Source: Teseptimavirus T7
Length of the DNA: 41,208 nucleotides
Reading direction: 5' to 3' (one strand)
Sequence record: PP384397
A program made the position numbers and the translations under genes. The notes beneath the pieces are model-generated. The model was not told the origin of the DNA and did no database searches. It saw nothing but the letters and a program-made list of their open reading frames with translations. Shown here in pieces: positions 6,951 through 7,055 of the stretch (position 1 is the stretch's first letter; every line of letters starts with the position of its first letter).

Positions 6951-7007
6951 GCTGCTAACAAAGCCCGAAAGGAAGCTGAGTTGGCTGCTGCCACCGCTGA
7001 GCAATAA

Positions 7008-7055
7008 CTAGCATAACCCCTTGGGGCCTCTAAACGGGTCTTGAGGGGTTTTTTG
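7008..7055 (+). terminator. T7 Tphi transcription terminator (vector-derived second copy)
   Basis: ctagcataaccccttggggcctctaaacgggtcttgaggggttttttg; GC stem-loop plus T-run; same as native copy at 25434..25481. Confidence 0.9.

Follow-up and report, generated by a model that had tools for sequence, protein, structure and literature searches.

The 105-nt segment at positions 6951–7055 is almost certainly the 'T7 terminator' module of a pIVEX2.3d/pET-type mCherry cassette, which was amplified by PCR and built into T7 immediately downstream of gene 1 by in vitro assembly. It repeats the native 3' end of gene 10B with the terminator Tphi, and it is vector DNA that has come back into the genome of its origin, with boundaries that are artefacts of its cloning history. 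The window, by which we mean the whole stretch of 41,208 nucleotides that was analyzed, agrees with the primers designed for T7_mC-g1-o (PP384397), a phage published in the PHEIGES study; this assignment rests on the primer junctions, the genome length and the sister genomes. The repeat is an engineered and already published feature, neither natural nor novel. The only new items are the destruction of the class II promoter phi1.1A and a collapse of 202 bp in the sister genome PP384393 that has apparently gone unreported.

The PHEIGES supplement lists T7_mC-g1-o under the accession PP384397 (PMC10933291). The cassette used in that study consists of a T7 promoter, a strong RBS, mCherry and a T7 terminator and was put downstream of gene 1, 10 or 17; fluorescence was seen for all three mCherry phages (PMC10933291). 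In the source data for Figure 2d of PMC10933291, the end-point fluorescence by well group was approximately 0–9, 37–66, 189–225 and 111–160. If these groups are ordered WT, g1, g10 and g17, the mCherry signal would be weakest at the gene 1 locus.

End-to-end alignment with the T7 reference V01146 identified the window as a complete engineered T7 genome with terminal repeats of 160 nt. Positions 1–5844 correspond to reference positions 1–5843 plus one extra A at window position 1897, and positions 7116–41208 correspond to reference positions 5845–39937 with a single substitution at window position 23900. The 1271-bp insert occupies positions 5845–7115, between reference positions 5843 and 5845, and the reference base T5844 is missing. 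The length sum fits these differences (39937 + 1 - 1 + 1271 = 41208). The extra A at 1897 (AAGGAACAAG vs AAGGACAAG in V01146) fits the 39,938-bp length of T7 records such as AY264774. The substitution at 23900, A to G relative to position 22629 of V01146, changes N227 of gene 9 to S; since PP384393 has the same change, it is probably a laboratory-stock variant. The features of the insert, its flanks and the native partners of its two repeats are the following, with the evidence in brackets.

5831..5844, plus strand: left remnant of the class II promoter phi1.1A, positions -17 to -5 (V01146 alignment; the primer gp1-oho1-as stops here)
5845..5904, plus strand: synthetic 60-nt orthogonal assembly linker oho1 (identical to the 5' tail of oho1-mcherry-s, PHEIGES Supplementary Data)
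5905..6059, plus strand: pIVEX2.3d/pET backbone with pBR322 tetA(C) remnant (begins with the primer pIVEX2.3d-seq1-s, TACCCACGCCGAAACAAGC; the site is also in the pET-type plasmid L004)
6060..6143, plus strand: cassette phi10 class III promoter and gene 10 leader/RBS (TAATACGACTCACTATAGGGAGA at 6066–6088; start site 6083; blastn match to reference 22881–22964)
6145..6855, plus strand: mCherry coding sequence, 236 aa and stop (ORF translation; annotated as mCherry in PP384395 and PP384393)
6856..6950, plus strand: vector polylinker, unused PGGGS-His6 tag and stops, with the BamHI linker GGATCCG at its end (translation LERAPGGGSHHHHHH and two stops behind the mCherry stop)
6951..7055, plus strand: cassette copy of T7 bp 24106–24210 (100% repeat; end set by the primer oho2-mcherry-as)
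7056..7115, plus strand: synthetic 60-nt orthogonal assembly linker oho2 (exact match to the primer tails of gp1-oho2-s and oho2-mcherry-as)
7116..7124, plus strand: right remnant of phi1.1A, positions -3 to +6 (reference T5844 omitted by primer design)
7118..7170, plus strand: retained hairpin at the position of R1.1 (reference ~5887, window ~7158), which from established T7 knowledge we take to be this RNase III site (RNA fold, -22.4 kcal/mol, z = -2.9)
7177..7199, plus strand: intact class II promoter phi1.1B, start site 7194 (repeat search; reference annotation 5923 + 1271)
7278..7406, plus strand: gene 1.1 (ORF list; 3' of phi1.1B)
24152..24235, plus strand: native phi10 promoter and gene 10 leader, partner of the 84-nt repeat (repeat search; reference annotation)
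25377..25481, plus strand: native copy of the gene 10B 3' end and Tphi (10B stop at 25431–25433; gene 11 ATG downstream at 25499)

On the minus strand, 5905–6044 is a remnant of the N-terminal part of pBR322 tetA(C), with 100% matches to tet(C) in many plasmids. The PGGGS-His6 tag with its double stop (6856–6905) lies in the mCherry frame behind the mCherry TAA and thus is not expressed.

The insert consists of oho1, the cassette and oho2, and its sequence agrees at every base with the published primers, including those for the two junctions, gp1-oho1-as and gp1-oho2-s. At the left junction, gp1-oho1-as corresponds to ...gccaaatcaatacgactcac followed by oho1, and at the right junction gp1-oho2-s corresponds to oho2 followed by atagagggacaaactcaagg. 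The cassette itself is delimited by oho1-mcherry-s, which is oho1 followed by tacccacgccgaaacaagc (named in the supplement as a pIVEX2.3d sequencing primer), and by oho2-mcherry-as, the reverse complement of ...gggtcttgaggggttttttg followed by oho2, with caaaaaacccctcaagaccc as its priming part. The same 1271-bp insert is present in PP384395 (recombinant T7_mCg17o), and the same cassette without oho2 is present in PP384393 (T7_mCg10o). Both records are annotated with mCherry and with a 'T7 promoter added for mCherry cassette'.

These junctions also bear on the possibility of a chimeric contig produced by sequencing or assembly, with reads of a contaminating pET-type plasmid joined to T7 via the shared Tphi or phi10 sequence. 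Such vectors are common contaminants, and several plasmids from unrelated bacteria are evidently vectors of this type. However, the junctions in the window are at the unique synthetic linkers inside phi1.1A, exactly as designed and away from the shared sequences. In addition, the sequences on both sides of the repeat are unique, the lengths of the parts add up to 41208, and the cassette-bearing phages fluoresce. We therefore rejected an assembly chimera, which we consider very improbable, and retained the designed assembly of a PCR-amplified cassette as the origin of the insert.

The first-pass annotation had described 6951..7055 as identical to 25377..25481, and self-comparison bears this out; the letters read are those of the string that it quoted. 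According to the repeat search of the window, the two copies form a direct repeat of 105 nt with 100% identity and a spacing of 18,426 bp. The identity ends exactly at these edges, with GGATCCG at the 5' flank of the cassette copy vs CACCCGC at the native copy, and AAAGGGG at the 3' flank of the cassette copy vs CTGAAAGG at the native copy. Even when up to 3 mismatches were allowed, a 48-nt core of the repeat, comprising the hairpin and the U-run, was found at exactly two sites in the window, as compared to 0.00 expected from 100 dinucleotide-preserving shuffles. The repeat corresponds to bp 24106–24210 of T7 V01146 with 100% identity.

Both edges can be explained by the history of the vector. 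The left boundary of the T7-derived segment in the pET-type plasmid L004 reads GATCCG followed by GCTGCTAAC, and the window reads GGATCCG followed by GCTGCTAAC. In this independent plasmid, the match to T7 spans 124 nt, from bp 24106 to bp 24229, and there is no T7 identity further left. Because L004 shows the same junction, the left edge of the repeat at bp 24106 was inherited from the vector lineage. The right edge is at bp 24210 because the priming part of oho2-mcherry-as ends there. This primer also explains why the window copy ends at bp 24210 and not at bp 24228/9 (…TTTTTTGCTGAAAGGAGGAACTATAT), the right end that L004 reaches with bp 24229. The repeat duplicates native T7 because the terminator fragment of the pET lineage was itself subcloned from T7, from bp 24106. 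Cassettes of this type were also observed in small 'plasmids' of Staphylococcus, Aeromonas, Micromonospora and Ruficoccus (H34–H37, e.g. NZ_CP071514.1, L004), which contain a pET-type T7 promoter, lac operator, His6 and T7 terminator. These look like laboratory-vector contamination in the respective assemblies.

A search with the 105-mer identified 179 phage records with 180 places in all, which implies that one record has a second copy. The two-copy record is not among the 60 matches listed of the 179 phage records. In PP384395, a sister construct, the 105-nt segment was found next to the g17 cassette, and this is likely to be the record that holds it twice. These counts are also relevant to a possible natural origin, in which the gene 10B/Tphi region would have been duplicated segmentally or transposed within a wild T7-like phage. 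In favor of such an origin, the repeat is perfect and its copies are in direct orientation in an otherwise T7 genome. However, only 180 places were found in the 179 phage records with the segment, and the copy in the window sits in vector sequence (a BamHI linker, a TOPO-type polylinker, His6, mCherry and a tet(C) remnant), with a 60-nt synthetic linker on either side of the cassette that corresponds to published primers. With the polylinker and His6 upstream, the synthetic oho2 downstream and no phage-only flanks, natural intragenomic duplication was rejected; we judge its probability to be negligible. The copy is instead attributed to the vector-derived terminator module.

The repeat has two parts. 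Positions 6951–7007 comprise the last 18 codons and the stop of gene 10B (AANKARKEAELAAATAEQ and stop), and the native frame of the 10B tail reads ...TRAANKARKEAELAAATAEQ and stop. The rest includes Tphi. Translation and an RNA fold with the U-run confirmed the earlier suggestion that the reporter copy carries the last codons of 10B plus Tphi. In the cassette, the translation places the 10B codons in a different frame and after four stops, that of mCherry and three more, and they are therefore untranslated passenger sequence. The Tphi hairpin of the cassette has its stem at 7015–7029 and 7036–7050, a loop of 6 nt at 7030–7035, a U-run at 7049–7054 and the release-site G at 7055. The RNA fold gave 15 bp with -22.8 kcal/mol and z = -4.6, followed by UUUUUUG, and the fold was the same in the cassette and native contexts. 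In V01146 the terminator Tphi is annotated at position 24210, and T7 bp 24170–24210, which span the hairpin, the U-run and the release-site G, are 100% identical in the cassette copy. Judged by sequence and predicted structure, the cassette copy would qualify as the T7 Tphi class I intrinsic terminator.

A simple terminator scan for a generic hairpin followed by a T-run called the native copy, at 25441–25486, and missed the cassette copy, at 7015–7060. The miss arises because the bases after the U-run differ (GAAAGG vs GCTGAA at the native site), which leaves one T fewer in the tail window and brings the cassette copy below the threshold. It is an effect of the scanner and no evidence that the cassette Tphi is inactive, and it flags the differing downstream context, which is GAAAGGGG in the cassette vs GCTGAAAGG at the native site. 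Upstream of the cassette Tphi, only 64 nt of native sequence have been kept. The Rfam scan of 5700–7400 at E≤1 gave only an osmY match, with 18.6 bits vs a gathering score of 46.9, which was taken as chance, and no curated Rfam family for Tphi.

Tphi belongs to the class I intrinsic terminators of T7 RNA polymerase, which require a hairpin, and T7 genes 11 and 12 rely wholly on transcripts that pass Tphi; this read-through is promoted by the G-rich abortive transcripts of phi10 (PMC2952870). Termination at Tphi is 62% in vivo and lower in vitro (PMC9157156). The upstream context is reported to matter (Yoo and Kang 1996, as cited in PMC9157156), and removal of approximately 100 bp of it reportedly halved the termination efficiency (relayed in PMC9157156). 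These values agree with the first-pass view of Tphi as only partially efficient. They also show that read-through at 'class III strength', as suggested there, is an overstatement, and that it should be scaled to the read-through fraction, which is roughly 20–40%. Judged from the literature, read-through of cassette transcripts into genes 1.1–1.3 is plausible.

The cassette has brought a second phi10 promoter into the genome, and most of the transcripts begun at 6083 would be released when the nascent RNA forms the 15-bp hairpin followed by U6. The product would be an mCherry mRNA of approximately 973 nt, extending from the start at 6083 to Tphi and ending in a stable, protective 3' hairpin. 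A minority of polymerases would pass Tphi and continue into the linker oho2, the R1.1 processing site and genes 1.1–1.3. With the hairpin at the R1.1 position kept just downstream, the read-through RNA would probably be cut off from the mCherry message.

The insertion has a second consequence for these genes, which the first-pass annotation missed. The promoter phi1.1A, which normally serves genes 1.1–1.3, has its start site at reference position 5848, and the insert lies inside it, between positions -5 and -3, so that the promoter is split and destroyed. Because the primers gp1-oho1-as and gp1-oho2-s set these ends, the loss of phi1.1A is built into the published design and is not a mutation. 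Downstream of the insert, phi1.1B (7177–7199) and phi1.3 are intact. Early host-polymerase transcripts from A1–A3 must now cross the cassette Tphi to reach genes 1.1–1.3. Since the insert destroys phi1.1A, any change in 1.1–1.3 expression is the balance between the loss of this class II promoter and the added read-through, and it could go in either direction.

Beyond ending cassette transcripts, the cassette Tphi might act mainly as a polar block in the early operon, which stops the host polymerase coming from A1–A3, slows transcription-driven genome entry and reduces rather than increases the expression of 1.1–1.3. This would be consistent with the canonical intrinsic-terminator anatomy of Tphi, the native copy of which is called by the generic scan, and with the removal of phi1.1A by the insert. 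It would also be consistent with the assembly titre of the gene 1 version, which was the lowest of the three (5e6 vs 6e7 and 2e8 PFU/ml). However, these titres are from cell-free assembly, in which entry has no part. Furthermore, phi1.1B and phi1.3 are intact downstream, and the strong cassette promoter upstream can drive both entry and read-through. A literature search on termination by E. coli RNA polymerase at Tphi provided no figure in the papers covered, the only values being for engineered hairpins. A predominantly polar effect seems rather unlikely to us, and we favor partial read-through from the cassette promoter. The region of genes 1.1–1.3 is dispensable in the PHEIGES system, because the ligase region has been deleted in T7-mini, and changes in its expression are therefore expected to have a mild phenotype.

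The two Tphi copies of the window bracket genes 1.1 through 10, essential genes included. Homologous collapse between 6951 and 25377 would generate a defective genome of 22.8 kb that lacks essential genes. Because the interval between the copies holds essential genes, the duplication is stably kept by selection, and for the same reason the screen for 6951/25377 recombinants that was suggested in the first-pass annotation would yield only defective molecules. Essential genes are likewise located between the two Tphi sites of PP384395, and around its cassette both linkers and the cassette Tphi are still present.

The situation is different in PP384393. According to the primers, the T7-mC-g10-o design consists of T7 up to the 10A stop, oho1, the cassette, oho2, and T7 resuming at aaccttaacgccagcacagg. 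When rebuilt from the window, this design has a length of 41,145 bp and contains two Tphi copies 202 bp apart, with oho2 between them. The deposited PP384393 has a length of 40,943 bp, exactly 202 bp below the design. Within its 5.3-kb region at 21382–26716, oho2 is absent, and the sequence agrees at 100% identity with the design once the Tphi pair is collapsed (L002, around 3731–3835). Thus, the same Tphi repeat appears to have recombined in PP384393, where the product is viable. Recombination at the g10 site is not mentioned in the PHEIGES paper or its supplement (PMC10933291). PHEIGES assembly uses ExoIII chew-back and annealing, and the collapse could have occurred in vitro or during phage growth; it is homology-driven either way.

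The cassette promoter and leader at 6060–6143 form a second direct repeat, of 84 nt, with 24152–24235 (99% identity, one mismatch, TCTAGC vs TCTAGA). Between the 84-nt repeat on one side and the 105-nt repeat on the other lies mCherry (807 bp) in the insert and gene 10 (1141 bp) at the capsid locus. From this arrangement, it is conceivable, though doubtful, that T7 recombination could convert the reporter into a second capsid gene and give rise to a viable, non-fluorescent phage of 41,542 bp, a size that lies within the under-2-kb insertion limit cited in PMC10933291. If such ectopic gene conversion occurs, the phage would carry its own means of losing the reporter as it is passaged. The 202-bp collapse in PP384393 indicates that the Tphi homology is already in use. 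A literature search for deletion frequencies between direct repeats in T7 found nothing useful in the papers covered.

A perfect repeat of this kind is striking and, as a product of cloning history, should be discounted when genomes are scanned for natural duplications or novel regulatory repeats. For users of the reporter phage, the relevant points are that phi1.1A has been lost and that a leaky terminator and a strong late promoter are now situated ahead of genes 1.1–1.3. The vector-derived phi10 and Tphi also provide approximately 100 bp of homology to the capsid locus. Given the apparent collapse in the sister phage with the cassette after gene 10, designers of T7 reporter phages may prefer heterologous terminators.

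The segment can be compared with its vector source, its native counterpart and the two sister constructs. It shares with the pET/pIVEX 'T7 terminator' module (T7 bp 24106 to ~24228) the GGATCCG followed by GCTGCTAACAAAGCC..., the tail codons of 10B, the hairpin and the U-run, as verified against a pET-type plasmid. The window copy differs from this module in that it ends at bp 24210, the last 18–19 vector bases (CTGAAAGGAGGAACTATAT) being replaced by the synthetic linker, and in that it is located in a phage genome that already carries the native element. As compared to the native Tphi between genes 10 and 11, the copy is 100% identical over 105 nt, has the same orientation and is likewise downstream of a phi10-type class III promoter. 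However, the native Tphi tunes the ratio of gene 10 to gene 11/12 expression, is preceded by 10B codons that are translated and is followed by gene 11, whereas the cassette copy follows mCherry and precedes the class I/II genes 1.1–1.3. Of the two sister constructs, PP384395 (T7_mCg17o) has the same cassette and has kept both linkers and the cassette Tphi. In PP384393 (T7_mCg10o), the tandem Tphi pair has collapsed to one copy and oho2 has been lost, whereas the window has retained both Tphi copies, 18,426 bp apart.
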